Shown in pieces: positions 45,470-64,000 of a DNA stretch of 64,000 bases. The position numbers and the translations under genes were made by a program. The stretch lies in the NCBI GenBank assembly GCA_040756055.1, contig JBFLZR010000009.1:4620-68619 (forward strand). The letters run 5' to 3'. This stretch comes from Candidatus Zixiibacteriota bacterium (lineage in GTDB: Bacteria; Zixibacteria; MSB-5A5; GN15; FEB-12). Within the stretch, counting starts at the first letter, position 1, and each line of letters begins with the position of its first letter. The notes beneath the pieces are model-generated. The model saw nothing but the letters and a program-made list of their open reading frames with translations, did not search any database and had not been told where the DNA came from.

Positions 45470-45509
45470 TGGGTTCCTTTATTGGTCCAGGTTGAAGCAG
45501 AGATATATA

Positions 45510-45737
45510 TTACATCGAATTGGAACGCGTAAACTTAACCCTTCCCTCCAAAAGATCTTTGAGAGCGACCATGGTAATCTTGCGGGCCTCTATTTCGACC
45601 GCCGGGTTTTCTTCCATCTTCTCCAGAGACCGTAAGCGCTTGTTGTTCAAGCCCCTGGCGTGCTGCGAAGCGACAATTACGGCTTCGTATCTGTTAAGTC
45701 CAAGTTTCTCCAGTTGATCGATCGGTAGTCTATGCAC
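45510..45737 (-). CDS. rpoZ: RNA polymerase omega subunit
   Basis: NRYEAVIVASQHAR...KITMVALKDL; directly after gmk. Confidence 0.8.
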   Translation of the reverse strand: MHRLPIDQLEKLGLNRYEAVIVASQHARGLNNKRLRSLEKMEENPAVEIEARKITMVALKDLLEGRVKFTRSNSM

Positions 45738-45766
45738 TTCGTCCTCCTGATTCGAAAATTAATCAA

Positions 45767-46387: not shown

Positions 46388-46408
46388 ACTCTTGAGAGGT
46401 CGTCACCG

Positions 46409-47284: not shown

Positions 47285-47387
47285 TTTATTTTGCCCTTAA
47301 AATACAAAAAACAGGCTAAAGAATAAGCCATTGGAGTGATTTGTCAACTGATATTACTTTCAAAGTGACCTATTTGGCCGTTTTGAC

Positions 47388-48062: not shown

Positions 48063-48071
48063 TTGAGCACC

Positions 48072-49988
48072 TCACAGCAAAGGTATTGAGATTCTTACCA
48101 GGGTCCCTTCCCCTTCGGTCGATGTTATGTGTAAATCACCTTTAAGAGATTCAACAAGCTTTCTGGTCAGCGATAGTCCCAGGCCGAGCCCCGGGATGCT
48201 CTGGACTTTCTTATCCGGCACACGGTAAAAGAAATCGCAGAGTCTGGGAATGTATTTGGACGCTATTCCCATACCGTTGTCGGCTACGTCGATAGTACAT
48301 CGTTCTGCCGACACCTCGGCTTTTATCCTGATGGTTGTCTTGCCTTTGTCGCCGAAAACGACGCTGTTGGCCATGACATTGTAAAGAGCGGCGCCAAGCA
48401 GGCGCTGATGTGTTTTTATCTTGGGTAAGTTTTTATATGTACAGTCGACAGCGGCGCCGGGATACGCGTTAAATATCTTTTGGATTTGCTGATTGACGAG
48501 AAGGTTCAAATCGACGACCTGAGCCGCGTCGTGAATCTTGATCTGGCGCACAAATCCGGACAAGCGCCGGACGACATCGAGAAGGTTACCCATAGCAGCG
48601 TCTATTTTCTCAATGCAACTGTTGCCTTTTTCGCCGAGTTCGTTATAGAACTCGTGGCAGACCTGATCGGCTGTGTATGACACGGTCTTCAGCGATTTGC
48701 TCAGATTGGTCAGCACCGCCTGCCACATCTTCCAGTCGGGGGCGCCGGACAACATACTGTCGTTGGCGGCCAGGCCGGGGATGAAAACAAGGCAACTGCT
48801 CAGATCATCCGGGCTGTCGCCGAGCTTCATGACAATCAGCCGAGCATAATCGCCGGGTGATGTCTTGATCTCCACTGCCAGGTCGGCGTAATGGTCTTGC
48901 TGATCGTCGGGGGTCGCGATGTGGTCGACTATCTGTTTTTCAATGTCGGGGGCGTTGTATTCCATTAGCGGTTTAAGAGCGTCGCGGTAATGGCTTTCGA
49001 GTTGTGTTTCATTGAATATGGTCAACGCCGAGGGGTTATAACCGATGACCGCGCCTTCGTGATCAGTAAGCAGAGCCGCTATGCCGAGCGAATCCAGAAA
49101 GCCAATCGTAAACTTGATATCGCGCAGAGGGTCAGAAGCTGCCGTAGTTTCGCCGGTGGTCCTCACCATCCTGGCCACTACTGGTAGCGCACATTTGACA
49201 GCGGCTATGGCGCTTCCCGCCTGACGGTGATCAAAGTCCTCGGGGAAAATCAGGCGAACCAGGTATTGAGAGCCATCGGGCGTCTCGACACGGCTGATAT
49301 ACTCATCGGGAGCCGAACCATACCTCTCAATCACCGCCTGGACTGCATCCTGATCGATAAAGGAGTAATCGTTACCCGTTTGAGCGATGTCGAGGTGTAA
49401 ATCGCCGGGATCGCCAACGGCGTTAAACACGTGTTCTCCGGCATCCTCGCCGCTTACGGCCGAGCGGGGCTGAAGACTTTCACCGGTGATCATATATACG
49501 CATGCCTGACGGGCCCTCACCGAATGGCAAACAGCCTGAAGCAACTGTCTCCATTCCGGCTTGCCGTCGATAGAAGCCAGGTTTTCCAGAATTGTCTTGT
49601 AGTGAGAAGTCATTTCGGACGGACTTTGACTTTCGACCAGGTCCGTCTGGTCGATTATAAGCTGGTAATTTACGGGATTCCCGGCGATGAAGTTCAGCGA
49701 CACCACGGCCCGTGCCGCGACCGGAGTGCGCTGCTGGTCGAGCAACGTTATTGTAGTGGAGTCATAAAAGGTTTCGTAGTGATTGCGATGCGACAGAAGC
49801 TGCTCTATTAACTTCTGTGATGGTTCATCGATGAAATCAAGCAGGGATTTCCCGAAAAGATCTTCCTTGGTATAGCCGAGCAGATCCTCGACTTTTTCAT
49901 CAACGTATACGAATCGTCCCTTGAGATCGATTTTACAAACGGCGCATCGTGTCAGGCCGATGCCGCTGGAGGACTGCTGAATGGTCAT
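48072..49988 (-). CDS. Soluble PAS/PAS histidine-kinase-like protein with degenerate H-box
   Basis: N-terminal PAS; HATPase NVMANS, DNGMGI, FFYRV and GLGLGL; expected SHDL position reads LTNL. Confidence 0.8.
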   Translation of the reverse strand: MTIQQSSSGIGLTRCAVCKIDLKGRFVYVDEKVEDLLGYTKEDLFGKSLLDFIDEPSQKLIEQLLSHRNHYETFYDSTTITLLDQQRTPVAARAVVSLNFIAGNPVNYQLIIDQTDLVESQSPSEMTSHYKTILENLASIDGKPEWRQLLQAVCHSVRARQACVYMITGESLQPRSAVSGEDAGEHVFNAVGDPGDLHLDIAQTGNDYSFIDQDAVQAVIERYGSAPDEYISRVETPDGSQYLVRLIFPEDFDHRQAGSAIAAVKCALPVVARMVRTTGETTAASDPLRDIKFTIGFLDSLGIAALLTDHEGAVIGYNPSALTIFNETQLESHYRDALKPLMEYNAPDIEKQIVDHIATPDDQQDHYADLAVEIKTSPGDYARLIVMKLGDSPDDLSSCLVFIPGLAANDSMLSGAPDWKMWQAVLTNLSKSLKTVSYTADQVCHEFYNELGEKGNSCIEKIDAAMGNLLDVVRRLSGFVRQIKIHDAAQVVDLNLLVNQQIQKIFNAYPGAAVDCTYKNLPKIKTHQRLLGAALYNVMANSVVFGDKGKTTIRIKAEVSAERCTIDVADNGMGIASKYIPRLCDFFYRVPDKKVQSIPGLGLGLSLTRKLVESLKGDLHITSTEGEGTLVRISIPLL

Positions 49989-49999
49989 GTTATTTTTGT

Positions 50000-52048
50000 T
50001 TAGTTCGCCTTCAACAACTTAACACGGTATGTTTGCCGGTCTGTGTTGATCACCACGATGTAGACGCCGGCTGCCACAACCTTACCACTTTGATTGCGGC
50101 CATCCCAATGTTCTACCAATACACTTAGTGCATCGGCATTTACGGAGAAATTATTGACTTTTTCCCACACTTTTTCTCCGGAACTGTTGAAAAACGAAAT
50201 AGACTGGATATTACCCGCTTCGGGCCCGACAAAGATGGAGACTTGATCGATAAAGGGATTTGGCCCGGCTGTTACCGGGTCAGTAAAGGTGCCGTACACT
50301 TGAATAGTGAAGAATGACGTATCAGAGAAATCCAAAAGTGAGGCAATCAGGCCGATCTCGACCGAGGGAACATCTGCCAGTTCGCCGCTGACCTCAAGTG
50401 AGCCGGTACCATCGCCGTTATCGGTCAGAATTACCCAGCCCGGCAGATTTATTCCCGTAAAGGACGGGACATCATCAGTCCAACCGCTGCTGGTAAAATC
50501 GAAGGTCTGAGTTTGGTCGCGCCCGACCTCAATGATATCGGGTAAGCTGAAATCAACAAACAGGTTAGCTGTTCGGGCGGCATTGAATAGGCCATAACCG
50601 AAATCGTTATCGGGAATAGCGCTCTTACTGCCTGTCAGTTTAATGCGTTCCACCAACTCCGCTGCAGTTAGCGTTGGATCGCGCTGCAGTGCCAGCGCTG
50701 CTCCGCCAGCGGTGAGGGGTGCGGAGAACGAAGTACCGTTGACCAGGGTAAAACCGCCGACGTGGCTGGCCGCAACAACACTCACACCGAGTGCTGTTAT
50801 ATCGGGTTTAATGCGCCCATCGGCCGTCGGGCCGGGCGATGAAAAGGAAGCCAGAGTTGAATCGGGATTCGCGGCTCCCACAGCCAGCACCGAGTCGCCA
50901 TCGGCGGGAGCGATTATGTGTCCCCAGGTGTTATTGCGTTCGTTCCCGGCAGAGTTGACGACCAGGATGTTTTTCGAGGCAGCTATATCGGCCGCGATTG
51001 TAATCAATGTCGTATTGCCGTCGAGATCCTCAAAAGTATAGCTGCCGCTGTCTTGAAACTCGTTATAACCCAAGGAAGAGTTGATGATGTCGACGCCGAT
51101 CGAGTCGGCCCATTCGGCAGCCGCAATCCAATTGTATTCTTCCATTTTCACTTCGGTGCCGTTACAGGTGATTTCGGTTTTGGCCAGAACGAAATCAGCA
51201 TCGTGCGCCACACCGATGAGAGTCCCCGGGGTATAGCCACCGACAACAGACAGAGTAGCCGTACCGTGAAAAGTCTGGTCGGTGGAAAACGAAGACGGGC
51301 ACTCCGGTTCATCGACAGCGACATCATCATTGATAAAGTCGTAGGTGGCAATTATGCTCGTCGAGTCAAACGCTTCGTGAGAGGGGTCAAAACCTCCGTC
51401 AAAGAAGGCAATAGTAACTCCTTCTCCGGTAAGTCCGGCCTGGTGCAGCTTCAGGGCGTTGATAAATTCGGTCTGGAAGAGCGATGGGCCGTAGTCGAAA
51501 TCGATTGCCTCAAGTGATCGAGCCACCGGTTTGGCTGAGGCAACTTCATCTCCGATATCAGTTACAAGGGTTCTGACCGGATCCACTTGTCGGACGAACG
51601 GCAACGAGGCCGCTTTCGCCAGCCGATTGGCATCCGTCTCAATTGCCACAGCCTTGAGCCAGCGGGATACGCGCTTTACTGACACCCCGGTGCTTTGTAT
51701 CTGCTGTATGACCGATTGACGGACCGGATAATCCCGCCGGTCGATCAGTAAATTAACCGGGTCAACTTTTGCCCTTCGCTTACGGGCTCGCTCAGTAAGC
51801 GTCACGGGAGACGACTCGACAGCCGAAGAATCAAGATAAAGCCAGAACTGGTTTTCGCTCTGACTGCTCATCGCATTCACCAATGACTGAGCGCGCTCGG
51901 TATATTTGCCCGACGGCTCCTGAGCGAGAACCGGCACCGATAAAGCAGCCGACAGCAGGGCAGAAACCAAGCCGACTTTTACAATATGTCCGACGCAATG
52001 TGATCTGTTCATAACAGGGCAACTACTTAGTGTAACGCTATTCGTCAA
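50000..52048 (-). CDS. Secreted S8 subtilisin-like serine protease with C-terminal FlgD-Ig/CTD-like domain
   Basis: Triad FFDGG, FHGT and NGTSFSAP; oxyanion NSAGN; C-terminal GPNPF...WDGRNQSGKVVAAGVY. Confidence 0.9.
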   Translation of the reverse strand: MTNSVTLSSCPVMNRSHCVGHIVKVGLVSALLSAALSVPVLAQEPSGKYTERAQSLVNAMSSQSENQFWLYLDSSAVESSPVTLTERARKRRAKVDPVNLLIDRRDYPVRQSVIQQIQSTGVSVKRVSRWLKAVAIETDANRLAKAASLPFVRQVDPVRTLVTDIGDEVASAKPVARSLEAIDFDYGPSLFQTEFINALKLHQAGLTGEGVTIAFFDGGFDPSHEAFDSTSIIATYDFINDDVAVDEPECPSSFSTDQTFHGTATLSVVGGYTPGTLIGVAHDADFVLAKTEITCNGTEVKMEEYNWIAAAEWADSIGVDIINSSLGYNEFQDSGSYTFEDLDGNTTLITIAADIAASKNILVVNSAGNERNNTWGHIIAPADGDSVLAVGAANPDSTLASFSSPGPTADGRIKPDITALGVSVVAASHVGGFTLVNGTSFSAPLTAGGAALALQRDPTLTAAELVERIKLTGSKSAIPDNDFGYGLFNAARTANLFVDFSLPDIIEVGRDQTQTFDFTSSGWTDDVPSFTGINLPGWVILTDNGDGTGSLEVSGELADVPSVEIGLIASLLDFSDTSFFTIQVYGTFTDPVTAGPNPFIDQVSIFVGPEAGNIQSISFFNSSGEKVWEKVNNFSVNADALSVLVEHWDGRNQSGKVVAAGVYIVVINTDRQTYRVKLLKAN

Positions 52049-52104
52049 TCGTTATTACAAGAAACGTGGGAATGGTAACATTTGTTCGAACAATCGAGGT
52101 CCGC

Positions 52105-52830
52105 CTACAGGACTTTGGCGAGAAAATCTTTTGTTCTCTGGTTCTTGGGTTTCACGAAGAATTCCTGAGGGGTTCCCTCTTCTATTATCCGACCGTCATC
52201 CATAAAAATTATGCGGTCGGCTACCTCTCTGGCGAAGCCGATCTCGTGGGTAACGACGAGCATGGTCATACCTTCTTTGGCCAGTTGTTTCATAACCTCG
52301 AGCACCTCGCCTATCATCTCGGGGTCCAGAGCGGATGTTACCTCATCGAAAAGCATAATCTTGGGATTCATCGCCAGGGCGCGTGCGATGGCCACCCTCT
52401 GTTTCTGTCCGCCGGACAACTGCCCCGGATACGCGTCCACCTTCTCTCTCAATCCGACCTTGCCGAGCAGTTCCGCCGATACTCTGACGGCCTCATCCTT
52501 TGACCGTTTACGGACCACACGCTGCGCCAGGCAGACGTTGTCAAGTACGGAAAGATGGGGAAACAGGTTGAAGTGCTGGAAAACCATACCAACCTCGAGC
52601 CGGATCTGGTGCATCTGGTGGTGATTTTTGTCAATCAGGAAGCCATCGACATTGATATCGCCCGTTTGAATCTCTTCCAGACCGTTCAGGCAGCGCAGCA
52701 GGGTTGATTTGCCCGAACCTGATGGTCCGAGGATAACGACCACCTCGCCCGGTGAAACATTGAGACTGAGATTGTTCAGCGCGACAGTATCGCCAAATCG
52801 ACAGGTTACGTTTTTGACTTCAATGATCAT
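52105..52830 (-). CDS. Polar amino-acid ABC transporter ATPase (GlnQ-like)
   Basis: [34 protein letters not shown] and [11 protein letters not shown]. Confidence 0.93.
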
Positions 52831-53506
52831 TACGACTCGCTCCGTAGCCATGGATGGCAAATTTCTTCTCGAGACGCTTGACGAGCCTTGTCAGCGTGAG
52901 TGTCATGATGAGATAAATGGCGCCTACCACCAGCCAGGTGTGGAAATCAAGAAAGTACTGGCTGGTGTATTCCCTACCGGCTCTGGTAAGTTCTCTCAGG
53001 CCAATAATGGAGACGAGCGATGAATCCTTCAAGCAGGCGATAAATTCGTTCGCGGCAGGGGCAACGACAATTCGAAACGACTGGGGCAGGATAATGTGCC
53101 GCAGAGTCTGCCATCGCGTCATCCCCAGCGACATGGCGGCTTCGTGCTGCCCGTAATCGATAGCTTCGATACCGGAGCGGAATATTTCGGCCATGTAAGC
53201 GCCGTAGCATACGCCGACCGCCAGAACGCCGGCAACGAATCTATCCATGTTCACGACCTTGCCCAGCCCAAAATAGAAAAAGAAGATGAGAACCAGCAGG
53301 GGCACACCGCGAAGCACGTTTATATAGGTTCCCGCCAGAGTTCGTATAGTACGGTTGCGGGAGATACGGGCAACTCCGAAGACGAGCCCTAAAATCATGG
53401 CAAGTACATAGGCCAATACCGAGATCAGTATGGTCCAGTGTACGACCTGAATTAGATAGAAGAAAATCTTTGACAGAATACCGAGTTGTTCGACAAGCCA
53501 CGTCAT
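52820..53506 (-). CDS. Polar amino-acid ABC transporter permease
   Basis: [28 protein letters not shown] and [10 protein letters not shown]. Confidence 0.93.
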
Positions 53507-53560
53507 GCTGGACTTTACATAGAAGATGAGCCGGCGTCGCCGGGATCCCCTGTCTTCCTC

Positions 53561-56398
53561 TTATTTTTTCTTTTTCAGGAGATTATCGAGGACGTTCTGA
53601 GCTTCGCCTTTCAAATTGTCCTGAAGATTTTTCCCGAGCGCGGAGTAATCAATGGCCACCGCCGGCTTGTCGAGCGTGCCTCCGAAGCCAATCGGAAGTT
53701 TGATTCTATCAACACTCTTGTCGGAAAGCAAGCCGGCTACGTTTCCAAGTAGTCCGCCCGACGAGACCAGCTTTTGTGACCATTCTTTCGACAGCAGAAT
53801 GGTGCCGGTGTAGTCTATATCTCCGTCAAATGAGTAGTAGCCATCCAGCTCAACCTCACCCATGCTTCCCAGCTGCGTTTTGAGCTTATCCACGCCAACC
53901 TTGCCATCCTTGACGATGACTTTGGTTGCCAGACTGCGCAGGGGTTGTTCCTTATCAAACGACTGCCCGGCCTTCGAAGCAAGGCTGTTTATGGCGGAGT
54001 AGACTTCACCCGAGGTGATCACTTTCCCCTGCTGCATGGAAGTATTGGAATTCATGGTGAGGGAATTCAGGAAATCCTCCGGCTCCCACCCTTCGGCGGC
54101 GTACTGACCATCGAGATTGATCTTGCCATAGAGAAAGCCGCCGAATTTGGTAAAGCGACTGACGAAATCATTGGCTTCAACATTGGTCGCCTGAAACTCG
54201 CCGGTATAACGCGGATTTTCAAAATCATTGAGGTCGATAGTCGTATTCCCCGCTACATCGCCGCTATAAACTTTACCGGTGGCATCATAGCACTCTATCT
54301 TGCGATCATAGATTTTTATTTTGCCCTGGAGCGACGTAAACTCCACCCGGCTGTAAATCAAGGTGTCAACCTCGAAAGTCCCCTGACCATCGATATCGGG
54401 CAGAATAATTGTCGACACTGAGTCCATTGAAGCCGTCGCCATGGTCTCACCGGATCCCGGAACGGCCTCAGGAAAGAGTTTGTCGGCGTCGAAGCGATGT
54501 GAGGTCAACTTGAACAAAAACAGCGGCTTGGTTACGTTACTGCGGTCGATAGTTTTCAGAGGCAACAGGTAAGGAAACGGGTTGATGAGCTTGCCCGAAA
54601 ATGAGGCGTCACTTGAAACAAACTGCGCCGTCATATTAACCACTGTTATTGTGTCGGGGGCAACTTTAAGATCGGCCTCGAAATGCCTGAGCGGTTCCGG
54701 AAGCAGCGAATCGGAATAGGATGCGTTTTTGATAGTTACAGTGCCGGAAGGCTGAAGTTTTTCGTAGTCAGCCAGGACACCGGCCAGTTTGAGGTTCAAG
54801 GCCAGATCCCCCTCCAGGTGGGGATTGCCTTTGGGGGGCAACAGCGAGTTAACGACATCGAGATTCAACCGGCCATCGAGAACTCCGTCTATAGTCGGGG
54901 TAATACCGGGGCGGGCCGTTGAGTCGGCCATCAAATACGGCACCAGTTTGTTGAGTCGTCCGGTAAAGCCCAGGCTTCCGGAACTCGTGCGAGCATCGAG
55001 TTTCTTGACGCTTGTCAGTTCCCGGTCAAAGTAGACATCGAGATTGAATGATTCGATCGGCTCGAGCATGAAACTCGAATTGTATTTTCCATCAACGACT
55101 TTCAGGTCGCCGGAGAAATTCATTTGGGTAAAGTCATTGGTCTTGCCTGACAGCTTGATATTGAACTCAGCGGCTCCGGCGATTTCGTGAGCGTCCTCCG
55201 CCGGAAGAAAAGGCTGCAAATATACGAGGTTGAAATTACCCGCGAGTTCCCCGTTAACAACCGGATCCTCAAAATTCTCAACGACCAGGTGGCCTTTCAG
55301 CGGTTTATCATCGAAATAGCCATCTTCGATGGTAAAGCGAAGGTTGTCATTTTTGAAGTCTATCAGCGCTTTGCTGAAGCGGAATTTGCCGGGGACCTCG
55401 CTATGGGACAGATTCATGGAGGTTATGATCGCGGTTCCGAAGTAAGTCAGCGTATCGGTATTTGCCGTATCGTATTCAACATCAAGATCGAGTGAGAAGT
55501 CGCCATCGACCTTGATATCTTTCGTCATTTCGAGTTGTTTCTCGGGCAGAAGGTTCAGCAGGTCGGCGACTTTGATTTTTTGAGATTTCAGGTTGACCTT
55601 GCTCTTAAGATCGCCCGCAGGATCCGACGCCGTGCCCTCGAGAGTAAACTTGAGAGCATTCAGCTCAAGTCCCGTCTCATCGAAGGTGAGCTGCTTCTGG
55701 TCAAGGTCGTAGGCGGCGTGGTAGTCCAGCTTGACGCTCAGTACGGGTAGTGGTTTCTCACCCGCTACCAGAAGCGAATCTATGGCAATAACGCCTGAAG
55801 ATTCATAGTAATTTTTTCTGGGTGCTTTTAGCGATGTTGAAAGATCGAGACCTCTGAGGTCGAAGGAACTGGCAGAGCTGTCATCGACATAGCTCAGGTA
55901 TCCCTCGTTGATTTCCAGTCTGTCGAACGTGACAGCCGCCGCGGCAGCCTTGGTTTCCGGCGTAGCCTTTTGAACCAGTTCGGGTGGCGCTTTTTTCTCC
56001 AGGCTTTCGAACGTATAATTATTGGAACCATCGGCTTCCTTGCGCATCGAAATCCGGGGGCGATTTACAACCAATTTGTCAATCCTGAAATCTCCGGAAA
56101 ATAGCGGCAGGATTCTCAGTTTAACATCCACATTGTCTGCCGTGAGAAACGAGCCATCTTCCATGTCCGGCGGATTGCTGATCGCCACATTGCCGAGCTT
56201 GACGCCGATACCGCCCCAGAATGACACCTGAGCATCGTCTATGGTAATATTGCGCCCGAGCTGCGCGCTGCCTTTTTCAATCGCGAATTCTTTCGCCTTT
56301 TCTATGGGGAAAAACAGCCATAAACCAACGATGGCCAGCAGGAGTAAAATGATAACAACGCCGGCGATCCAGCCCAGTATTCTCGTGAGTCTTTTCAT
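53561..56398 (-). CDS. AsmA-family protein
   Basis: N-terminal TM anchor, LGRNITI...DNVDVKLRILPL...IDKLVVNRPRI; long beta-taco-like body; C-terminal GGTLDKP. Confidence 0.85.
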   Translation of the reverse strand: MKRLTRILGWIAGVVIILLLLAIVGLWLFFPIEKAKEFAIEKGSAQLGRNITIDDAQVSFWGGIGVKLGNVAISNPPDMEDGSFLTADNVDVKLRILPLFSGDFRIDKLVVNRPRISMRKEADGSNNYTFESLEKKAPPELVQKATPETKAAAAAVTFDRLEINEGYLSYVDDSSASSFDLRGLDLSTSLKAPRKNYYESSGVIAIDSLLVAGEKPLPVLSVKLDYHAAYDLDQKQLTFDETGLELNALKFTLEGTASDPAGDLKSKVNLKSQKIKVADLLNLLPEKQLEMTKDIKVDGDFSLDLDVEYDTANTDTLTYFGTAIITSMNLSHSEVPGKFRFSKALIDFKNDNLRFTIEDGYFDDKPLKGHLVVENFEDPVVNGELAGNFNLVYLQPFLPAEDAHEIAGAAEFNIKLSGKTNDFTQMNFSGDLKVVDGKYNSSFMLEPIESFNLDVYFDRELTSVKKLDARTSSGSLGFTGRLNKLVPYLMADSTARPGITPTIDGVLDGRLNLDVVNSLLPPKGNPHLEGDLALNLKLAGVLADYEKLQPSGTVTIKNASYSDSLLPEPLRHFEADLKVAPDTITVVNMTAQFVSSDASFSGKLINPFPYLLPLKTIDRSNVTKPLFLFKLTSHRFDADKLFPEAVPGSGETMATASMDSVSTIILPDIDGQGTFEVDTLIYSRVEFTSLQGKIKIYDRKIECYDATGKVYSGDVAGNTTIDLNDFENPRYTGEFQATNVEANDFVSRFTKFGGFLYGKINLDGQYAAEGWEPEDFLNSLTMNSNTSMQQGKVITSGEVYSAINSLASKAGQSFDKEQPLRSLATKVIVKDGKVGVDKLKTQLGSMGEVELDGYYSFDGDIDYTGTILLSKEWSQKLVSSGGLLGNVAGLLSDKSVDRIKLPIGFGGTLDKPAVAIDYSALGKNLQDNLKGEAQNVLDNLLKKKK

Positions 56399-56522
56399 AT
56401 TCCTTTATATTCCTTCCGCTTACAACAGGCCCAAAATTCTAATAAGAAATCGGTCCGCTGGCAATTAAAATCGAAAGGGGGCTTTGGCCCCCTCTGGTCG
56501 TGTCTCAAGTCTACACGGGAAT

Positions 56523-57200
56523 CTATAGCGTCAGAGCATCACCCGGTTTCAAAATGACAACTTCCGCGCCCGATACTTTGTCGGCGAAGCGCTTGGGGTC
56601 CTCGGCGATAATATCCCAAGTATTATAGTGTATTGGGACGACTTTACCGGGTTGAAGGAATTCCACCGCCTTCACGGCGTCATCAATCCCCATGGTGAAG
56701 TTGTCACCGATCGGCAGGAAGGCGAGGTCGATGCGGTTCATCTCACCTATCAACTTCATATCGTAGAACAGGCCTGTATCCCCGGGATGATAGATGGTGG
56801 CGCCGCCGATGGTGACAAGGAAACCGCAGGCAGGGCCGGTATAGCGGGAGGCGTCAGGACCATATCCTCCACCGTGGTGGGCGATGGTCAGTTTCACTCT
56901 TCCGAAGTCAAACTTGTGTGAACCGCCGATGTGCATCGGGTGAATCTGGGCTCCCTGGCTCGAACACAGGTTGGCCAGTTCGAAGTTGGCGATGATAGTA
57001 GCATTGTTGCGTTTGGCAATGGCGATGGCATCCCCGACATGGTCGCCGTGACCGTGCGTCAGCAGGACATAATTCACGTCAACGTCGGCCGCTTTTGTCG
57101 CGGCTTTTGGATTGTCACTTAGAAACGGATCGATAATGAGCTTATGCTTGCCCTCGGTGATGGTCACACATGAATGACCCAGAAATCGTACTTGAGGCAT
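56523..57200 (-). CDS. UPF0173-like metal-dependent hydrolase (MBL fold)
   Basis: FLGHS, IIDPFL, LTHGHGDH, YHPGDT, LPIGDNFTM and VPIHYNT. Confidence 0.9.
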   Translation of the reverse strand: MPQVRFLGHSCVTITEGKHKLIIDPFLSDNPKAATKAADVDVNYVLLTHGHGDHVGDAIAIAKRNNATIIANFELANLCSSQGAQIHPMHIGGSHKFDFGRVKLTIAHHGGGYGPDASRYTGPACGFLVTIGGATIYHPGDTGLFYDMKLIGEMNRIDLAFLPIGDNFTMGIDDAVKAVEFLQPGKVVPIHYNTWDIIAEDPKRFADKVSGAEVVILKPGDALTL

Positions 57201-57344
57201 ATCAAACTCCTTGACTATTTGTTAGCAGATCGATGGTTTAGTAATATTGGGGCTGAAATTAGGCAGGTCAACGATATTTTGGTCCGTATCGGCTCAAATC
57301 AGTTGTTGGCAGTCATGTCTAAGTTATTCGGCGACAACGAGGAG

Positions 57345-58361
57345 CTACTTATTGATTGTCCGAAAGAGGCAGGTCGGGAAGGAAGCGTTGAGGTCGCCGG
57401 TGTGCGCGTATACCGCACCGCGGCAAGCGCCGCGACAGACTTTAAAATAGGGGCATTCGCGGCAGTGACCATCGATAGTCTCACGGGGATAACGGGCTAT
57501 CTCGGTCATCTTGGGATCAGTCAGGATGTCAGCCAGACTTTTCTGTCGGACATTGCCTACGATGAACCGGTCAAAAAGCAGGCTGGTGCACGGGTAAACA
57601 TCGCCCTTGGATGATATGTAGAATGCCTCCGAACCGGCTTTGCATTTGTGGAAATCGTAGGCTGGAGGTAGCGGTCCAAAGGCAACATCGGGCAAGACGC
57701 GGGGATTATCCAAAACGACAAGTTTTTCCATCAGCAGAGCGAGGTCTTCGAGCCGGTCGCCGAAAGACATTTTCCGGCTGATCTCGTCATCCGTCCCCCC
57801 TCCGTGCGGCACGAAACAGCAATATCGGATTGTCTTCACGCCGAGTTCCCTTGCCATATCGACATAGTCAAGCACGTCATCCATGCTGGCGCGGGAGATT
57901 ATCATGGCCAGATAGACGGGAAGTCCGGCATCGAGACTTCTCTTGATGCCATCGATAACCATGTGAAATTCTTTGGCGCTGGCGAGCCTGATATTGTGGT
58001 TTCTTTCGGGGGTGGAGCCATCGAGGCTGATCTGCAGCGAGCTCAGATGCAGTTTCTTGAGGTTTTCGACACGCTTCGCGGTGAGTGGTATGCCATTAGT
58101 CGTTATTCCCGATTTTATGCCTTGATCATAGGCGTACGCGATCAGGTCTTCCAGGTCTTTTCTGATGAAGGGTTCGCCACCCGTCCAACCGATAGTCTCG
58201 ACTTCTATCTGACTCAGGTAGTCTATAATGTGTCGGCATTCGTCGGTCGTAAGTTCGCCGTCGGATACTTTCACCGCCGAACTATAACAGTGCGGACAGG
58301 AAAGGTTGCAGCGGTCAGTTATACCCCATCCGACAGAGCGATATTTTTGTACTTCTGCCAT
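57345..58361 (-). CDS. Radical SAM/SPASM protein (PqqE/NirJ-like scaffold, no N-terminal extension)
   Basis: CNLSCPHC, WTGGEP and ISLDG; SPASM CKAG...YPC...CRECPYFKVCRGAC...C (7 Cys). Confidence 0.93.
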   Translation of the reverse strand: MAEVQKYRSVGWGITDRCNLSCPHCYSSAVKVSDGELTTDECRHIIDYLSQIEVETIGWTGGEPFIRKDLEDLIAYAYDQGIKSGITTNGIPLTAKRVENLKKLHLSSLQISLDGSTPERNHNIRLASAKEFHMVIDGIKRSLDAGLPVYLAMIISRASMDDVLDYVDMARELGVKTIRYCCFVPHGGGTDDEISRKMSFGDRLEDLALLMEKLVVLDNPRVLPDVAFGPLPPAYDFHKCKAGSEAFYISSKGDVYPCTSLLFDRFIVGNVRQKSLADILTDPKMTEIARYPRETIDGHCRECPYFKVCRGACRGAVYAHTGDLNASFPTCLFRTINK

Positions 58362-58395
58362 GGTTTTCCATTCTCAATGATGCAGTACACACAGC

Positions 58396-58431
58396 GGTGA
58401 ATGCGGCAGGAGAAATCCCACCGCATTCACC
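58396..58431. terminator. Stem-loop after precursor peptide B
   Basis: GGTGAATGCGG / CCGCATTCACC perfect 11-bp stem. Confidence 0.7.
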
Positions 58432-58456
58432 TCAAACGGTCTCGGACATCCGATCT

Positions 58457-58609
58457 TTAGTCGTCCGGCGGAAGCATAATTCCAATGATCGGATAGATAA
58501 CCGGCTTGCAGAGCGTTGGACAATATGTCCCGCACAGCAAGGCACAATCCGTTGGGCAGTTGGGGCCGTTGGGGCCTTTACCGCTTGACGGTCCGATGAT
58601 GAATATCAT
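58457..58609 (-). CDS. Putative RiPP precursor peptide B, 50 aa, (CX3)4C
   Basis: Hand-translated MIFIIGPSSGKGPNGPNCPTDCALLCGTYCPTLCKPVIYPIIGIMLPPDD*; RBS GAGGAGG 7 nt upstream; lies between two rSAM/SPASM genes; absent from the ORF track (<60 aa). Confidence 0.85.
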   Translation of the reverse strand: MIFIIGPSSGKGPNGPNCPTDCALLCGTYCPTLCKPVIYPIIGIMLPPDD

Positions 58610-58680
58610 TGCCTCTCCTCCTCATGTGTTTCACGCTGAAGGCACGACGCCGCCATTATTGATTTGAACAATTGATGGCG

Positions 58681-60006
58681 CTATGTAGCCTCCCGGCGTG
58701 TTACATAAAGGTGTCGTAGCTCAAGCAAATCCTGCAGGTTTTCACTGAAGAATTTGCACTTTCCTGACAGACTCTCTGTTTGTTCGCGGATATCGATAGC
58801 GCACCCTCCAGCGCAGACGGGGAGAATAGCGCATGATTTACAGCTGTTACTTTCCAACGGGTCGAGCGTCGTATATTGGAGCATATTCCGATGCTGGAAT
58901 TCATCCACCGGCCTGTAAAAAATGGAATCCACCGACTGATCTACCCTCGCAGACACATCCTGCCAGCATTTAAAGATGTAACCGCTTGGGGCTATTATAA
59001 AAGAACTGTCGGAGTCAGTCGGACATGAGGGCTCGGCAAGTAAATACGGAAAGTCAAACTTCAGACCGCTTCTTCCCGTTACATTTCGATAGATATTCAG
59101 GTGGTTTTTGAGCTCTGAATCACTCTGACGGCATCGACCGATTGCGTCAGCGCAGATCTCTGTTTTAACACGGCTCGGTGCAACGAGAAGGCGCACCCTG
59201 CCGAGTACATCAGCCTGCGCAAGTGAATCAAGAACGTCGTTCATACCCTCGACATCGCTTGCGGCGACATTTATTCTCACAATCGTGTCGAGAATTCCGG
59301 CGACCTGCGAGAGGTTGAAGACTATCCGGTCAAACGAACCGTTCACCTCAGACAATTTCCTTGTTTTATCGTGCGCTTCCCGCGGCCCATTCAAAGTGAC
59401 CTGAGCGGTGTGGACGCCCGCTTCATTGAGGCGCAGCGCCATGGTTTTATCCAAAAGAGCGCCGTTGGTGATGATCGTTGAAGCAAAAAGTTCGATTCCA
59501 TACCCGGCAGCTTTGTCGGCAAGATGTCTCTGGATTCGCTCGATGGTATCGATTTCGAGAAGCGGCTCACCACCGAACCAGGTAACATGTATCTTCTCGG
59601 CTTTCCTGATGGTCTTGTCCAGAAACGAGACCAAAAATTTCTCGACCGGTGGCCGCATCTTCATCTTGTGTTGTCGTCCGTAGCATAAATCGCAGGTTAG
59701 ATTGCAATCGAGGGTAGGAGCAATGGCGAGGGTAAGAAGGTCTTTTCCGAAGCGGCCACGATTATAATACATTTTCTGCTGCGCCAATTCATGGACATCA
59801 TCTTCAATAAGGAATCCGCCATAAACCAACTGCTGTCTGAGAGCGAGGTTATTCTCGGCAGATTCGCCCAGGGGATTCTTTAGAACGGCGGAGACCTGCG
59901 AATAGGAGTTCGGGTCAAGCTCAGCCATGGCACCCGTGACACTGTTAAAGAGGATCCGGTTGCCATTATCGAGATCGGCAAAAATGTTAAACTGGGACGC
60001 TTTCAC
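58681..60006 (-). CDS. Radical SAM/SPASM peptide maturase with N-terminal RRE-like extension
   Basis: About 85-aa N-terminal extension (SQFNIF...ILFNSVTGAMAEL), LAIAPTLDCNLTCDLC, WFGGEPLL; SPASM C...FKCW...CKSCAILPVCAGGC...C. Confidence 0.92.
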   Translation of the reverse strand: MKASQFNIFADLDNGNRILFNSVTGAMAELDPNSYSQVSAVLKNPLGESAENNLALRQQLVYGGFLIEDDVHELAQQKMYYNRGRFGKDLLTLAIAPTLDCNLTCDLCYGRQHKMKMRPPVEKFLVSFLDKTIRKAEKIHVTWFGGEPLLEIDTIERIQRHLADKAAGYGIELFASTIITNGALLDKTMALRLNEAGVHTAQVTLNGPREAHDKTRKLSEVNGSFDRIVFNLSQVAGILDTIVRINVAASDVEGMNDVLDSLAQADVLGRVRLLVAPSRVKTEICADAIGRCRQSDSELKNHLNIYRNVTGRSGLKFDFPYLLAEPSCPTDSDSSFIIAPSGYIFKCWQDVSARVDQSVDSIFYRPVDEFQHRNMLQYTTLDPLESNSCKSCAILPVCAGGCAIDIREQTESLSGKCKFFSENLQDLLELRHLYVTRREAT

Positions 60007-60101
60007 GAGACTTTTTGTTCCTGTGAGGGACTTGTCAAGAGAAGCCGAGGTGCTGCTTCTATCGCCGTCAAGTTAAGTTGTTCCAAATAGGATACTTAAC
60101 T

Positions 60102-60129
60102 AATATAGCTTTTTTGTCCCGACTGTCAA
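60102..60129 (-). promoter_or_regulatory. Sigma70-like promoter for the rSAM maturase
   Basis: Minus strand TTGACA-N16-TATATT. Confidence 0.6.
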
Positions 60130-60218
60130 TATTGAAGTTTAGAGCCGAATCATCGCGACCCTTCACGTCTAGCGATCCGGCGCTGTGTTACCGAATGTCC
60201 TACAGGATGACCAAAGTG

Positions 60219-60286
60219 AAACACGGTCGAGAAGTTACGACCGTGTTTTTGCCTGCGCGTAAAATCGAAATCGCTCGATTTTTTTT
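60219..60286. terminator. Two hairpins following precursor peptide A
   Basis: AAACACGGTCG/CGACCGTGTTT (60219-60248) and AAAATCGA/TCGATTTT (60261-60282). Confidence 0.65.
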
Positions 60287-60287
60287 G

Positions 60288-60383
60288 TCATTCGGGCGGC
60301 TGGATAACAAACAGCCTTATGCAATCGAACGGGCAGGGTTTGTTCGGTCCCTTACCGCTGATGGGCTCAATGATAAACAGCAT
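60288..60383 (-). CDS. Putative RiPP precursor peptide A, 31 aa
   Basis: Hand-translated MLFIIEPISGKGPNKPCPFDCIRLFVIQPPE*; RBS GAGGAGG 7 nt upstream; paralogous to peptide B. Confidence 0.82.
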   Translation of the reverse strand: MLFIIEPISGKGPNKPCPFDCIRLFVIQPPE

Positions 60384-60687
60384 TAGCCTTCCTCCTCAAT
60401 GCGTTAGGATATATTCTGTTAGCACGAGCGCATAATCTGTTGATCTGCAAAGTCGGTTACGTGCTGAACAGATTCTAATGATACTTTACATCACCAATAG
60501 AGTCCTAGAGTCATCTAATCTGTCCTTCTGTAGGGGGCCTGCAGGAAGAGGCAACGTACTATATGCTACCAACACACAGTCAAGCCGCTCTAATAAGTCA
60601 GTATTTAAATAAGTCTTCCTGGAGCTACATGTCAATATTGATATTCACGAGCGGTAATTTCAATTAAGTATCCTGAGGAGCCAACCG

Positions 60688-61773
60688 CTAAGCGATGATC
60701 CCACCGCCCAGAAGAACATCGCCGTCGTAGAAAACCACTGACTGGCCGGGGGTTATGGCGCGCTGCTTCCGGTCGAAGACGACTTTCACCTGGCGGTCCG
60801 ACAAGGGAATCAAAGTTGCCGGAGCGGCCTTGTGCTGATAACGAATTTTTACTTCGACGCGAAGTTCCTCTGCCGGTGGGGCAATGCTTACCCAGTTGAC
60901 ATTCGCTGCCGTCAATTCGCGTTCGTAAAGCCCACTATCATCGCCGACTAAGATGCGGTTACTATCGACGTCAATCTTCTGGACATACAGCGGGGTCGGG
61001 TAGGCAACCCCGAGCCCCCGGCGCTGGCCAATAGTGTAGAAAGGTGTCCCCTTGTGTTTGCCCAGCACGGTTCCGTCTTCATGAACAATATCTCCCGGGG
61101 CATGCTCAATACCTTCTTTGGCATCATACTCGGTCAAGAAGCGGTGATAGTCGTCGTCGGCAACAAAGCATATCTCGCGGGATTCGACTTTGTTGGCTGT
61201 GCGGAGGTTATACTTTGACGCAATCTCACGGACCTGGGATTTCAGCATTCCACCGAGCGGCATAAGCGTTTTGGACAGAGCCTCCTGACTGATTCCCCAC
61301 AGCACATATGACTGATCGCGTGATTCATCGACGCCTTTGCGAATCCGGTAGCGGCCGCTCTCACTTTGTTCGACGAAGGAGTAGTGGCCGGTGGCGATAA
61401 AGTCGCACCCTACCTGCTTTGCCTTGCGAAGAAACTCGTTCCATTTTACTTCGGTGTTACAACGCACGCACGGATTCGGAGTTCTGCCGGCCCGGTATTC
61501 ATTTACGAAATCCTTGATTACTTTTTCCCGGAACTGCTCGGACATATTCAGGACATAGAACGGGGCGCCAATTGAATCACAGACCATGCGGCAATCGGTA
61601 ATAGAATCGATGGTACAGCACCGACCGTCCTTGTAAATATCGCCGCCCACATCGACATAGTCCCAGAGCTTCATGTGGGCCCCAACGACATCGAAGCCCT
61701 GTTCCTTCAGAATCAGGGCCGCTACGGACGAATCCACTCCACCGGACATTGCCACCAGTACTTTTTCACTCAT
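60688..61773 (-). CDS. mnmA: tRNA-specific 2-thiouridylase
   Basis: AMSGGVDSS, TPNPCVRCN, ATGHY, DQSYVL and RAITPGQSVVFY. Confidence 0.96.
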   Translation of the reverse strand: MSEKVLVAMSGGVDSSVAALILKEQGFDVVGAHMKLWDYVDVGGDIYKDGRCCTIDSITDCRMVCDSIGAPFYVLNMSEQFREKVIKDFVNEYRAGRTPNPCVRCNTEVKWNEFLRKAKQVGCDFIATGHYSFVEQSESGRYRIRKGVDESRDQSYVLWGISQEALSKTLMPLGGMLKSQVREIASKYNLRTANKVESREICFVADDDYHRFLTEYDAKEGIEHAPGDIVHEDGTVLGKHKGTPFYTIGQRRGLGVAYPTPLYVQKIDVDSNRILVGDDSGLYERELTAANVNWVSIAPPAEELRVEVKIRYQHKAAPATLIPLSDRQVKVVFDRKQRAITPGQSVVFYDGDVLLGGGIIA

Positions 61774-61836
61774 GGTTCATAACCAAAGAAAAGGGTCGCT
61801 GAGCGACCCGTAAGATTCGCTCCCTGTTCATTGCGC

Positions 61837-63003
61837 CTATTGTTTGCTATAAACAGGAGACATTTCGCGCAGTTTGCCGATGACATCAGGAAGAACTCCG
61901 AGGACGTAGTCGATTTCATCGCGCGTCGTGGATCTGCCGATAGAGAAGCGGATGGCCCCCTGGGCCATGACACTTTCGATCCCCATGGCTCTCAACACAT
62001 GCGAGGGTTCGGTTGCTCCGGAGGTACAAGCGGAGCCGGAGGAACAGGCGATTCCCTTAAGGTCCAGCGCCAGAACGATCGACTCACCTTCCACGCCATT
62101 GAACGAAATATTGACCGTCTGAGGGACCCTGTTTTGCCTGGTGCCATTGAGCGCGATATCGGGAATAGTCGCGACCACTTTGTCGATGAAATAGTCGGCC
62201 AGATCCGACATCATTTTATAGTCCTGTTGCTGACGGGCGAGGGCTATTTCAAGGGCCTTCGCGAAACCGACCGCCCCCGCGACATTTTCGGTTCCGGGCC
62301 GACGCTTCCTCTCGTGTGAACCGCCGTAGAACAGCGGTAACACCTTAATGCCGGCGCGAATATAGAGGGCACCGATTCCCTTGGGCCCGTAAATCTTGTG
62401 GGCGGTAATCGAAGCCATGTCTACGTCCATCTGACGAACATCCACCGGGATTTTGCCTGTCGACTGAACAGCATCGGTATGAAAGAGGCTCCCTTTTTCG
62501 TGGGCAACTTCAGCCATTGGCCGGATATCCTGAATAGTACCGGTTTCGTTGTTGGCGTGCATTACCGAAACGATCGATGTTCTGTCCTTGACGATTTGTC
62601 GTAGTTGGTCCGGTGAGGAGAAGCCTTCGCGGTCCACCGGCAAAAAGTCAAGCTTGAGGTTGTGCCGGTGAGCGAGATATTCGGCCGGTTCGAGCACGGC
62701 GTGATGCTCGGCGGCGCCGACAATGATGTGGTCTTTTTCTTTAATATTTTTAAATGCCGTCCCGAGAATGGCAATATTGTCCGATTCAGTGCCTCCCGAC
62801 GTGAAATAGAGTTCAGTCGGATCGCAGTTTATGACCGCGGCGATTTGTTCGCGGGCGTTTTCCAGCGCCACCTTGGCTTCCCGTCCGAATGAGTGCACGG
62901 AACTGGCGTTACCAAACTTTGCACTCAGATATGGAAGCATTGCTTCGACCACGAGCGGGTCTACGGGGGTGGTGGCATTGTGATCAAGATAAACGGTCTT
63001 CAT
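61837..63003 (-). CDS. iscS: Cysteine desulfurase (IscS/NifS family)
   Basis: YLDHNATTP, FTSGGTESDN, HTDAVQ, AHKIYGPKG and SSGSACTSG. Confidence 0.93.
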   Translation of the reverse strand: MKTVYLDHNATTPVDPLVVEAMLPYLSAKFGNASSVHSFGREAKVALENAREQIAAVINCDPTELYFTSGGTESDNIAILGTAFKNIKEKDHIIVGAAEHHAVLEPAEYLAHRHNLKLDFLPVDREGFSSPDQLRQIVKDRTSIVSVMHANNETGTIQDIRPMAEVAHEKGSLFHTDAVQSTGKIPVDVRQMDVDMASITAHKIYGPKGIGALYIRAGIKVLPLFYGGSHERKRRPGTENVAGAVGFAKALEIALARQQQDYKMMSDLADYFIDKVVATIPDIALNGTRQNRVPQTVNISFNGVEGESIVLALDLKGIACSSGSACTSGATEPSHVLRAMGIESVMAQGAIRFSIGRSTTRDEIDYVLGVLPDVIGKLREMSPVYSKQ

Positions 63004-63088
63004 GTTATTTCTCTGATTTTTGATTTACTACATTATATATCAATACGAACTATTTGCCGGACTCAGTTGTTCCGGCGCATCTAACTCA

Positions 63089-64000
63089 TTAGAAGGCATA
63101 TAATATAGTAAAATGCCAGCGGCTGGCAAAGTCATATTTGTCGGTCTTTATTCTTCGGGCGTAGTCGATCCGGATAGGGCCGGCTGGTGACATTATCTGA
63201 AAACCAGTACCATAACTGTATGCCAGATTGGAGAATTTCATTTCAGTATCCTGCCTGAAGCCATTGCCCATATCGAAAAAGACCGACTGATACAGCGGCA
63301 GCGTCTCGAAAAATCCCCCGATACCCGGCAAAGCCTGTAGAAACTGGATGGTCCTCCATCTGAATTCCTGGTTAAATATAGCCGTAATCCTGGCACCTTC
63401 CACCGATCCATCCTCAAATAACGGTCCGAGGGAGTTTTCTCTGAACCCTCTGATGGTACTGGCGCCGCCGAGATAGAGGCGCTCCTCAGCCGGGACTGCG
63501 CTCGATTGACCGAAGGCGGTGGCGTATCCTCCTTTGATGCGCGTGGCGGATATCCAGCCGGGCCAGACCACCTGGTATCTTCCCCAGCTTGCTTCAAGCT
63601 TGTAAAAATCGTCATCTCCACCGAGAAAACCGCCGAAAAATTCGCCCGAGATATCGCTGAGCGAACCTCTTCGCGGGATGAAAATGTTGTCACGACTGTC
63701 TCGCCGGTACGTGGCATAGAGCTTCCGCCTGGCGGAGATACCTTCTTCCTCCTTTATCAGTTGCTCGGTTCCGGCCGGGATGTCGGAGAGCTCGACCTCG
63801 TTGTACTCCAGTCCTGCCGTGGTTTTCACTTTGTCACCGAACCACTTGACAGTCGACACCGAAACCGACCAGGAACTGATTACGAAATCCTGGACCGACG
63901 ACCTTATAGGAGGTTCATACTGTCCTGTGAATGAGACCGGCATTCGAAAGCCCAAAAACCATGGCTCTGTGTAGCGAATCCAGTAACGGTGCGTGATCAG
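63089..64000 (-). CDS. C-terminal part of an Omp85-family (BamA/TamA) beta-barrel protein, 5-prime truncated by the window
   Basis: Frame open to base 64000; YLGGASTIRGF, SPAGPIRIDYA and terminal aromatic ...TILYAF*. Confidence 0.88.
   Translation of the reverse strand: MITHRYWIRYTEPWFLGFRMPVSFTGQYEPPIRSSVQDFVISSWSVSVSTVKWFGDKVKTTAGLEYNEVELSDIPAGTEQLIKEEEGISARRKLYATYRRDSRDNIFIPRRGSLSDISGEFFGGFLGGDDDFYKLEASWGRYQVVWPGWISATRIKGGYATAFGQSSAVPAEERLYLGGASTIRGFRENSLGPLFEDGSVEGARITAIFNQEFRWRTIQFLQALPGIGGFFETLPLYQSVFFDMGNGFRQDTEMKFSNLAYSYGTGFQIMSPAGPIRIDYARRIKTDKYDFASRWHFTILYAF

Follow-up and report, generated by a model that had tools for sequence, protein, structure and literature searches.

A five-cysteine ladder peptide encoded beside two radical-SAM/SPASM enzymes in Zixibacteria appears to represent a widespread, undescribed family that most resembles SCIFF thioether peptides

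We analyzed a 64,000-nucleotide stretch (hereafter, the window) of contig JBFLZR010000009.1 from a Candidatus Zixiibacteriota genome (G000), and describe an unannotated gene in it, precB, which encodes a short peptide with five regularly spaced cysteines and lies between the genes for two radical S-adenosylmethionine (rSAM) enzymes, rSAM-441 and rSAM-338. We read precB as the translated precursor of a peptide that is made ribosomally and then modified post-translationally (a RiPP), in which rSAM-441 would form SCIFF-like Cys-Thr thioethers and rSAM-338 would act on the tail or on the nearest Cys; we put the probability of this reading at roughly 0.55. The family to which precB belongs is widespread but undescribed and most resembles the SCIFF thioether peptides of Clostridia.

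The precB open reading frame (ORF; 58457..58609, minus strand, ATG start, stop codon included) appears in the ORF list, is supported by selection and RNA contigs, and translates into 50 amino acid residues, MIFIIGPSSGKGPNGPNCPTDCALLCGTYCPTLCKPVIYPIIGIMLPPDD. A sequence-only reading of this DNA had pointed to five cysteines at exact i+4 spacing followed by a hydrophobic, Pro-rich tail, and both features are present as described. The cysteines occupy positions 18, 22, 26, 30 and 34, that is, every fourth residue, and form a ladder C-PTD-C-ALL-C-GTY-C-PTL-C (residues 18-34; 58508..58558, minus strand). The ladder is preceded by a leader (residues 1-17, MIFIIGPSSGKGPNGPN; 58559..58609, minus strand), which matches that of the neighboring paralogue precA and contains the strand M-x-F-I-I-x-P, and is followed by the hydrophobic tail (residues 35-50, KPVIYPIIGIMLPPDD; 58460..58507, minus strand), which is conserved in a congener (genome G002) and aligns with the tails of the family described below. 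A strong Shine-Dalgarno site read from the sequence, GAGGAGGAGAGG (58612..58623, minus strand), ends 2 nt before the ATG; GAGGAGG-type sites of this kind precede most precursors of the family.

The ladder is more than chance. Translated in all six frames, the complete 3.3-Mb genome contains two instances of C(x3C)4, one in precB and one in an out-of-frame poly-Cys low-complexity run that is an artefact, against an expectation of 0.08 per genome for independent, identically distributed residues. Reading the codons gave no evidence for a recent tandem duplication of 12-nt rung units in precB. Three rungs carry Thr at i+2 (C18/T20, C26/T28 and C30/T32), and the sole Asp, D21, stands at C-x2-D, with no C-x3-D in the peptide. 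The internal CPTxC repeat noted earlier is real in this genome (CPTDC, residues 18-22, and CPTLC, residues 30-34) but only partly conserved, the corresponding units in G002 being CPSDC and CATLC.

Comparison with G002 shows that precB is under strong purifying selection. The two peptides are 83% identical, with all five Cys and their spacing kept, and the 47 aligned codons differ by 20.5 synonymous and 9.5 non-synonymous changes (pS 0.60, pN 0.089). Three of the five Cys codons differ synonymously (TGC/TGT), the five changes in the 13 tail codons are all synonymous, and both T28 and T32 are retained. Because pN/pS is low, the Cys codons vary synonymously and all changes in the tail are silent, the frame must be translated and strongly constrained. 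Evidence for transcription, weak but consistent, came from two RNA libraries, a soil RNA-seq (X16) and a sediment metatranscriptome (X17), which are samples other than the genome's own. In X16, the sole full-length matches across window positions 44001-64000 were two adjoining pieces, one of 150 nt over precB (58466-58615, one mismatch) and one of 151 nt that spans the spacer upstream of it and runs into the 3' end of rSAM-441; in X17, a 188-nt contig covers precB (58441-58628). By hand codon arithmetic, all seven listed variant positions in these pieces are synonymous third positions. A DNA variant of precB from another sediment has changes confined to the last residues (D49). A strain variant in a further sediment DNA run (X2) begins its leader, LFIIEPING..., directly at the rSAM-441 stop (window position 58681), as in G002, so the 71-nt spacer between rSAM-441 and precB in this genome is not universal.

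These data bear directly on the view that precB is not a functional substrate of its neighbors, being instead a duplicate undergoing decay, a leader decoy or regulator, or a peptide modified solely by the maturases of "system 2", a second two-enzyme set on contig C6 of the same genome. Decay has a precedent in a related contig (L026, described below), which carries a leaderless remnant of a B core, and the precB core and tail do resemble the system-2 precursors, whose set includes an ABC exporter. Selection nevertheless acts on the whole frame, including the leader common with precA, the gene is transcribed, and G002 keeps precB as the only precursor of its island, translationally coupled to rSAM-441; cross-talk with system 2 would not make precB non-functional. 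We regard this view as most improbable.

rSAM-441 (441 residues; 58681..60006, minus strand), encoded upstream of precB, is a maturase with a RiPP recognition element (RRE), an rSAM domain (CNLTCDLC, GGEP) and a SPASM domain; its motifs comprise CX3CX2C, GGEP and nine conserved C-terminal Cys. Its best NCBIfam match is TIGR04463 (235.8 bits; cutoff 525), and further matches are the Clo7bot maturase (225 bits; cutoff 600), CefB (184; 600) and PapB (112; 340) models, as well as the FlmE/OhkG and geopeptide models, also below cutoff. The SCIFF maturase model TIGR03974 gives 73.4 bits over residues 53-236 only (cutoff 425), and the CXXX-repeat maturase model TIGR04115 gives 45.8 bits (cutoff 350). 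An AlphaFold (AF2) model built from 69 homologues (pLDDT 86, pTM 0.86) contains an N-terminal beta3/alpha domain of RRE type. Its top fold match in the PDB is full-length CteB (5WGG), with a TM-score of 0.70 and the RRE included, and anSME is also among the top matches. As modelled, rSAM-441 matches the ranthipeptide synthase CteB in its entire architecture, with RRE, rSAM and SPASM domains. In a maturase tree it falls into a two-enzyme "system 1" clade with 97/97 support, apart from a clade that unites Clo7bot and system 2.

rSAM-338 (338 residues; 57345..58361, minus strand; Pfam Radical_SAM and SPASM) combines an rSAM domain (CNLSCPHC) with a seven-Cys SPASM domain and has no N-terminal RRE, since its CX3CX2C motif already starts at residue 18. 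The AhbD, MftC, StsB and NirJ models of NCBIfam match it, all below cutoff (StsB, 152 bits against 625), and its nearest PDB entries are SkfB (E 9e-18) and PqqE, with a weaker resemblance to the epimerase YydG/EpeE. Both enzymes thus score below every curated NCBIfam family cutoff. The two architectures, and the resemblance of rSAM-338 to SkfB, PqqE, MftC and StsB, support the earlier proposal that precB is a precursor for the flanking radical-SAM enzymes; among the chemistries suggested there, thioether formation from the ladder Cys has the firmest basis. The locus also has the general make-up of a RiPP cluster: a small ORF with a ribosome-binding site (RBS), co-oriented beside an RRE-bearing rSAM/SPASM gene, in an association that is conserved across genomes.

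To place the locus in a wider context we confirmed 383 related loci of the first enzyme and fetched and examined 80 of them. Homologues of this enzyme occur in Zixibacteria, Ignavibacteria, Acidobacteriota, Planctomycetota, Clostridia and Collinsella, and nearly all of the loci adjoin unannotated small ORFs that start with M-[KR]-[FYW]-[IV]-[IV]-x-P and continue into a Cys-rich core; the leader motif M-x-[FYW]-[ILV]-[IV]-x-P is common to precursors beside this maturase clade in many phyla. Only the Clostridia examples satisfy the Clo7bot models. An orthologue of rSAM-338 (40-79% identity) directly follows the precursor in about 37 of the 80 loci, and among these 80 no third conserved gene was found. 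A ladder-precursor profile, which precB matches with 54 bits (E 7e-14), has matches in 76 of 285 genomes of the phylum and in 38 of 130 genera, often in tandem. precB shares all the features by which we define the family: the leader M-x-[FY]-[LI]-I-x-P, at least two Cys mostly at i+4, the tail [KR]-x-x-[YF]-P-x-x-(G)-..-P and an adjacent rSAM/SPASM pair. Pfam and NCBIfam models gave no match to the family peptides even at E<=10. A word-indexed protein search with precB found nothing, because ORFs of this type are rarely called, and an exhaustive profile search of 1.84 billion proteins returned 26 representative clusters, all unnamed or labelled "hypothetical protein". Nor did literature searches turn up anything relevant on TIGR04463, Clo7bot, CefB, FlmE/OhkG, MKFIVKP-like leaders or Zixibacteria RiPPs.

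The rules of the precursors were drawn from 48 collected peptides. A spacing of i+4 accounts for 86 of 123 successive Cys-Cys gaps (70%), and the longest uninterrupted ladder has two, three, four and five Cys in 18, 12, 11 and 2 peptides, respectively, the two five-Cys ladders being those of precB in G000 and in G002. The i+4 ladder is therefore a family rule, with precB as its extreme. Thr is the commonest residue at i+2 (40 of 86 rungs, 47%), and i+3 is mostly Leu, Phe or Lys. The same data weigh on the possibility that the peptide is an unmodified metal- or Fe-S-binding ladder with five thiols on one helical face, the rSAM genes being unrelated to it or acting as chaperones only. C-x3-C spacing could indeed put thiols on one side of a helix, and Zixibacteria live in metal-rich anoxic sediments, the matching runs being sediment metagenomes. 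The number of Cys, though, varies from two to five among close relatives, unlike that of a fixed metal site, Pro and Gly within the rungs (CPTD, CGTY, CPTL) disfavor a helix, and the peptides are tightly linked to RRE-bearing peptide maturases across phyla. The sequence-only reading had offered such a ladder as one option; we found nothing specific in its support and consider it very unlikely.

The most constant part of the family precursors is the tail, which takes the form K-x-F-F-P-I-L-P-P-W in system 1 and [KR]-x-(V/I)-(V/I)-Y-P-[ML]-Y-G-[VI]-P-P in system 2. That of precB, K-P-V-I-Y-P-I-I-G-I-M-L-P-P, can be aligned to both, for example to the family tails K-x-V-V-Y-P-M-Y-G-V-P-P and K-L-F-F-P-I-L-P-P-W. 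We had considered precB a chimera of a system-1 leader and a system-2 core and tail, and downgraded this idea to only a possibility when the tail also aligned, with a four-residue insert, to a system-1 tail (K-I-F-F-P-I-I-P-P-W of the congener G001); given this alignment, the tails of the two systems look like one homologous continuum. Separately, one locus (L137, 3127-3237) encodes a hybrid precursor, P0135 (MEYLIDPEEVTTSGACPKYSPCIRYCKMFFPICPPW), with a system-2 leader and a system-1 tail, directly upstream of a gene for an rSAM-338-like protein (47% identity), a context which hints at a match between the type of tail and the second enzyme.

Of 31 loci with two rSAM genes, 25 were scored as having a hydrophobic tail (the other six have one by eye), as against none of 29 loci with a single rSAM gene. 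A crude tail pattern ("PP" or "YG") had given a noisy 2x2 table, and the statistic for the refined descriptor is descriptive only. The tail had earlier been suggested as a follower or recognition sequence. The likelier recognition element is the N-terminal M-x-F-I-I-x-P strand common to the whole superfamily, and the tail, which is conserved more strongly than the rest of the peptide and is found together with the second rSAM, looks more like that enzyme's site of modification or recognition than like a passive follower. Such a tail could also serve as the acceptor strand of a sactipeptide-type hairpin, in which the ladder Cys would be S-C(alpha)-bonded to tail residues in nested rings, as in subtilosin or thurincin, by one or both enzymes acting as sactisynthases. 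Ladder and tail are similar in length (17 and 16 residues), the tail is conserved and accompanies the second rSAM, and among solved structures the sactisynthase SkfB stands nearest to rSAM-338, which also matches the StsB sactisynthase model. These matches are, however, far below cutoff, and rSAM-338 scores equally on AhbD, MftC, NirJ and PqqE, none of which is a thioether enzyme. A one-to-one pairing of Cys and acceptors is not kept in a family with two to five Cys and similar tail lengths, and the Pro positions of Pro-rich tails are poor alpha-H donors. On balance we find the hairpin unlikely.

For the reading that we prefer, the proposed steps are as follows. The leader (M-I-F-I-I-G-P...) would be bound as a beta-strand by the RRE of rSAM-441, its M-x-F-I-I-x-P strand being presumed to be the RRE-binding element by analogy with the CteA/CteB structure (PMC8326336). 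rSAM-441 would then turn ladder Cys into intramolecular thioether cross-links, most probably SCIFF-type S-C(gamma) links from Cys(i) to Thr(i+2), namely C18-T20, C26-T28 and C30-T32, and the remaining Cys would be joined to other acceptors or left free. SCIFF-like stapling of Cys to Thr is the likeliest activity because the commonest rung of the family shares the i/i+2 geometry of CteB. Of the acceptor residues proposed earlier, Thr gains support, both from its frequency at i+2 and from the Cys32-Thr34 link made by CteB. Asp does not: it is confined to the genus, and its C-x2-D spacing is mostly rejected by PapB (PMC8172795). The target of rSAM-338 would be the tail or the Cys closest to it; action on the tail is suggested by the fact that tail and second enzyme appear and disappear together. 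The product would be a small, rigid and very hydrophobic polycyclic peptide.

Chemistry other than thioether formation has been weighed against this scheme. The enzymes could cross-link the conserved Tyr or Pro of the tail through C-C or C-O bonds, epimerize the Ile/Val-rich tail, or oxidize Cys in the manner of formylglycine formation, with the Cys serving mainly as cluster ligands or in disulfides. Family members commonly have an aromatic residue beside a Cys or in the tail, rSAM-338 is similar to PqqE and MftC, enzymes of Tyr-directed C-C chemistry, with a weaker likeness to YydG/EpeE, and anSME is among the top fold matches of rSAM-441. The periodic and strongly conserved Cys with Thr at i+2 nevertheless parallel SCIFF cores, and it is CteB, over its full length and with the RRE included, that rSAM-441 is closest to in fold. 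We therefore rate this chemistry as improbable.

Several observations weigh against Cys-Thr stapling by rSAM-441. With both enzymes below all NCBIfam cutoffs, and with a sequence identity of only ~18% between rSAM-441 and CteB, function is not transferable by homology. In CteA itself only one of six Cys was seen cross-linked, so that this precedent does not imply a full ladder of rings. Thr is missing from two precB rungs, C22-A-L and C34-K-P, G002 carries Ser in place of T20, and many of the minimal family members (P-C-P-C-Y-K-K...) lack Thr altogether. The precB leader is unusually short, and neither a protease nor an exporter is encoded in the system-1 cassette. The link between tail and second rSAM was obtained with a descriptor chosen post hoc from loci that are not phylogenetically independent, and the RNA support consists of depth-2 contigs of read length.

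A bolder extension of the stapling scheme, possible though doubtful, is that these loci represent a new two-module, two-enzyme class of RiPPs. Each C-x-T rung would become an i-to-i+2 thioether micro-ring made by the CteB-like enzyme, up to a ladder of consecutive rings, and the invariant Y-P-x-x-G...P-P tail would be altered by the RRE-independent SPASM enzyme, for example through a Tyr or Pro cross-link or by epimerization. Leader, ladder and tail would be shuffled between the two paralogous systems, with precB and P0135 as examples.

The cassette that holds these genes is, from comparison of genomes, an insertion of ~3.4 kb between mnmA and a housekeeping gene for an MBL-fold hydrolase (window positions 60688-61773 and 56523-57200, respectively). 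In two sister genera (loci L113 and L114) the site is empty, with 68-177 nt separating mnmA from the hydrolase gene. Among congeners, identity over the backbone nifS / mnmA / MBL-hydrolase / asmA is 77-90%, and that of the island enzymes is only 43-62% (first) and 61-79% (second). The hydrolase at 56523-57200 was tried as a protease of the cluster and rejected: it is 86-90% conserved, lies beside mnmA in genera without the island and is absent from the other loci. No two genomes of the genus carry the same set of precursors. In G000 these are precA and the five-Cys precB, and in G002 the start of precB, the sole precursor of the island, overlaps the stop codon of the rSAM-441 homologue. The island of G001 has five precursors, two of them C-x6-C-x3-C-x3-C-x3-C ladders, that of G003 has one two-Cys precursor and that of G004 none. 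The fourth precursor of the G001 island (L023, ~6391-6520), of ladder type (LFIVPPVFSGKKGPCPDKVWPCGILCATFCSDNCKVVFVIIPPKP), has ACG in place of the ATG of its paralogues, and may have either a non-canonical start or be a freshly inactivated copy. In L026, a contig of a metagenome-assembled genome (GCA_004525835; 1359-1613), an A-type precursor takes the position and RBS that precB has in G002, and its stop is followed, after ~30 nt, by an intact B core that has no leader, start codon or RBS; this looks like recombination between repeated leader segments. The pattern of hypervariable, multi-copy cores, fast-evolving enzymes, a cassette that is an island and an exporter in system 2 suggests that the product may have a secreted signalling or antagonistic role.

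The second precursor of the G000 island, precA (60288..60383, minus strand), is a 31-residue, two-Cys paralogue, MLFIIEPISGKGPNKPCPFDCIRLFVIQPPE, with its own GAGGAGG site and one CPFDC unit. It has the leader MLFIIEPISGKGPN in common with precB (65% identity over residues 1-27), and its orthologue is present in L026. A 16-bp stem-loop without a U-tract lies between precB and the rSAM-338 gene (58396..58431, minus strand; fold z-score -4.35). Its counterpart in G002 has a z-score of -5.26, with the stem kept through paired changes such as U-A to C-G. A hairpin after the precursor gene is the usual layout that keeps precursor mRNA in excess, and this stem-loop may act in mRNA stability or attenuation, in which case it would keep precB mRNA above that of the enzyme. 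Two further stem-loops directly follow precA (60219..60282, minus strand; fold z-score -4.08), and a promoter-like TTGACA-16-TATATT precedes rSAM-441 (60102..60129, minus strand), which is a consensus match only (11 of 12 positions).

System 2 lies outside the window (contig C6, 113966-118480; locus L109, 4967-9480) and comprises a precursor, MIFLIDPTMVGKKCPSYEPPVCSPKYIPLYGIDPILPPE, a 447-residue rSAM protein that scores 373 bits against the Clo7bot model (cutoff 600), a 359-residue rSAM/SPASM protein and a 585-residue ABC transporter. The leaders of this precursor and of precB are closely similar, which makes cross-talk between the two systems possible. Another genome, G050, encodes two ladder precursors with good RBSs, e.g. 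MVYLIDPQDVLSGKPCKTFCELVCSTLCVTRTACAIKPLYGIDT (L024, 5601-5735 and 8275-8397), and no rSAM gene was found within 6 kb of them; their neighbors encode a methyltransferase, a GNAT protein and a glycosyltransferase, and maturases are encoded elsewhere in G050, so these orphans would be served in trans, if at all. Two other groups share the leader type. Planctomycetota and Acidobacteriota/Terriglobia (loci L056-L091) have multi-copy, unannotated MKFIVKP...(I)T[LM]C[WAV][KL]CSEDPR[AFW]C precursors on the strand opposite to a single TIGR04463-like rSAM gene (314 bits; cutoff 525), apparently another undescribed family with an MKFIVKP-type leader. Gut Collinsella (loci L105-L108) encode MSWIVKPSYVDPGGGCNGYCKKFCGARVCTKNCSKNNCVVYF, with Cys every 4-5 residues, beside a related rSAM; no NCBIfam peptide model matched it.

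To our knowledge, sactipeptides and ranthipeptides, in which the Cys sulfur is bonded to the alpha-carbon or to a non-alpha carbon of the acceptor residue, respectively, are known almost entirely from Firmicutes. The precB family is unannotated and common in an uncultured phylum, with about a quarter of the genomes searched carrying it. It shows the logic of C-x3-C with Thr at i+2 in an exaggerated form of up to five rungs, and adds a second radical-SAM enzyme that tracks a conserved peptide tail. The three genes provide a compact test bed for whether CteB-like enzymes can iterate along a ladder and for what an RRE-less partner contributes, and the natural core variants with two to five Cys are usable for studies of substrate rules. 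If the product were only a single-link peptide like thermocellin, it would be an ordinary new member of its class; if the two-module class were real, its shuffled parts would give Zixibacteria, Ignavibacteria and Acidobacteriota a naturally occurring combinatorial library of polycyclic, hydrophobic peptides.

SCIFF peptides are the largest group of radical-SAM thioether peptides. Their consensus has several C-x3-C steps, consistent with the published numbering Cys21...Cys32, in which Cys32 is the fourth Cys. SCIFF systems (CteA/CteB of thermocellin, Tte1186a/Tte1186) share with precB a short M-K-x-I-type N-terminus, a Cys-rich core with Thr or Ser between the Cys, and an RRE/rSAM/SPASM enzyme, CteB being the best structural match to rSAM-441. 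The CteA leader docks onto the RRE of CteB as a beta-strand, auxiliary cluster I takes a substrate Cys as ligand at its open iron, and in E. coli CteB forms a Cys32-Thr34 S-C(gamma) thioether in CteA, i to i+2 (PMC8326336, PMC8172795). C-x-T-hydrophobic, the rung found most often in the precB family, has this geometry. A link between SCIFF peptides and quorum sensing has been reported (PMC8326336). The precB locus differs from them in its Y-P-x-x-G/L-P-P tail, its RRE-less second rSAM, a much shorter leader, hypervariable multi-copy cores and its phylum, and the SCIFF precursor model TIGR03973 (six_Cys_in_45, cutoff 50 bits) did not match precB at E<=10 in a genome-wide search or in hmmscan.

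Closest to rSAM-441 in sequence are the Clo7bot (TIGR04333/TIGR04334), TIGR04463 and CefB ("Cys-every-fifth") families, which we found only as NCBIfam models. Like the precB family, they have leaders of the type M-K-[FY]-I-V-K-P, and their Cys-rich precursors are variable, arranged in tandem and periodic in Cys, but Clo7bot-type loci have neither a second rSAM nor a hydrophobic tail, and in CefA/CefB the Cys come at every fifth residue rather than every fourth. The Clo7bot peptide model TIGR04333 (cutoff 31 bits) did not match precB; as a control, a genuine Clostridia locus scored 768 bits for the maturase and 37-40 bits for the peptide. Freyrasin (PapA/PapB) likewise has a periodic Cys motif and one RRE/rSAM/SPASM enzyme, which acts iteratively to make six Cys-X3-Asp S-C(beta) thioethers, whereas in precB the i+4 residue is the next Cys and not Asp. 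The CXXX-repeat system (TIGR04115) also presents Cys at every fourth residue to a radical-SAM/SPASM maturase; precB differs in having only five rungs, a specific leader and tail, and no match to the repeat models of Pfam or NCBIfam. Thuricin CD likewise requires a pair of radical-SAM enzymes, sactisynthases that act together and whose genes accompany those of its Cys-bearing precursors (PMC12093266); that system is a two-peptide Firmicute sactibiotic of unrelated sequence, and here only one enzyme has an RRE. By each family's own thresholds the precB locus is outside SCIFF, Clo7bot, TIGR04463, CefB, CXXX-repeat and PapB. What is known in it is the radical-SAM thioether-peptide theme; what is unfamiliar is the family, the tail and the two-enzyme logic.

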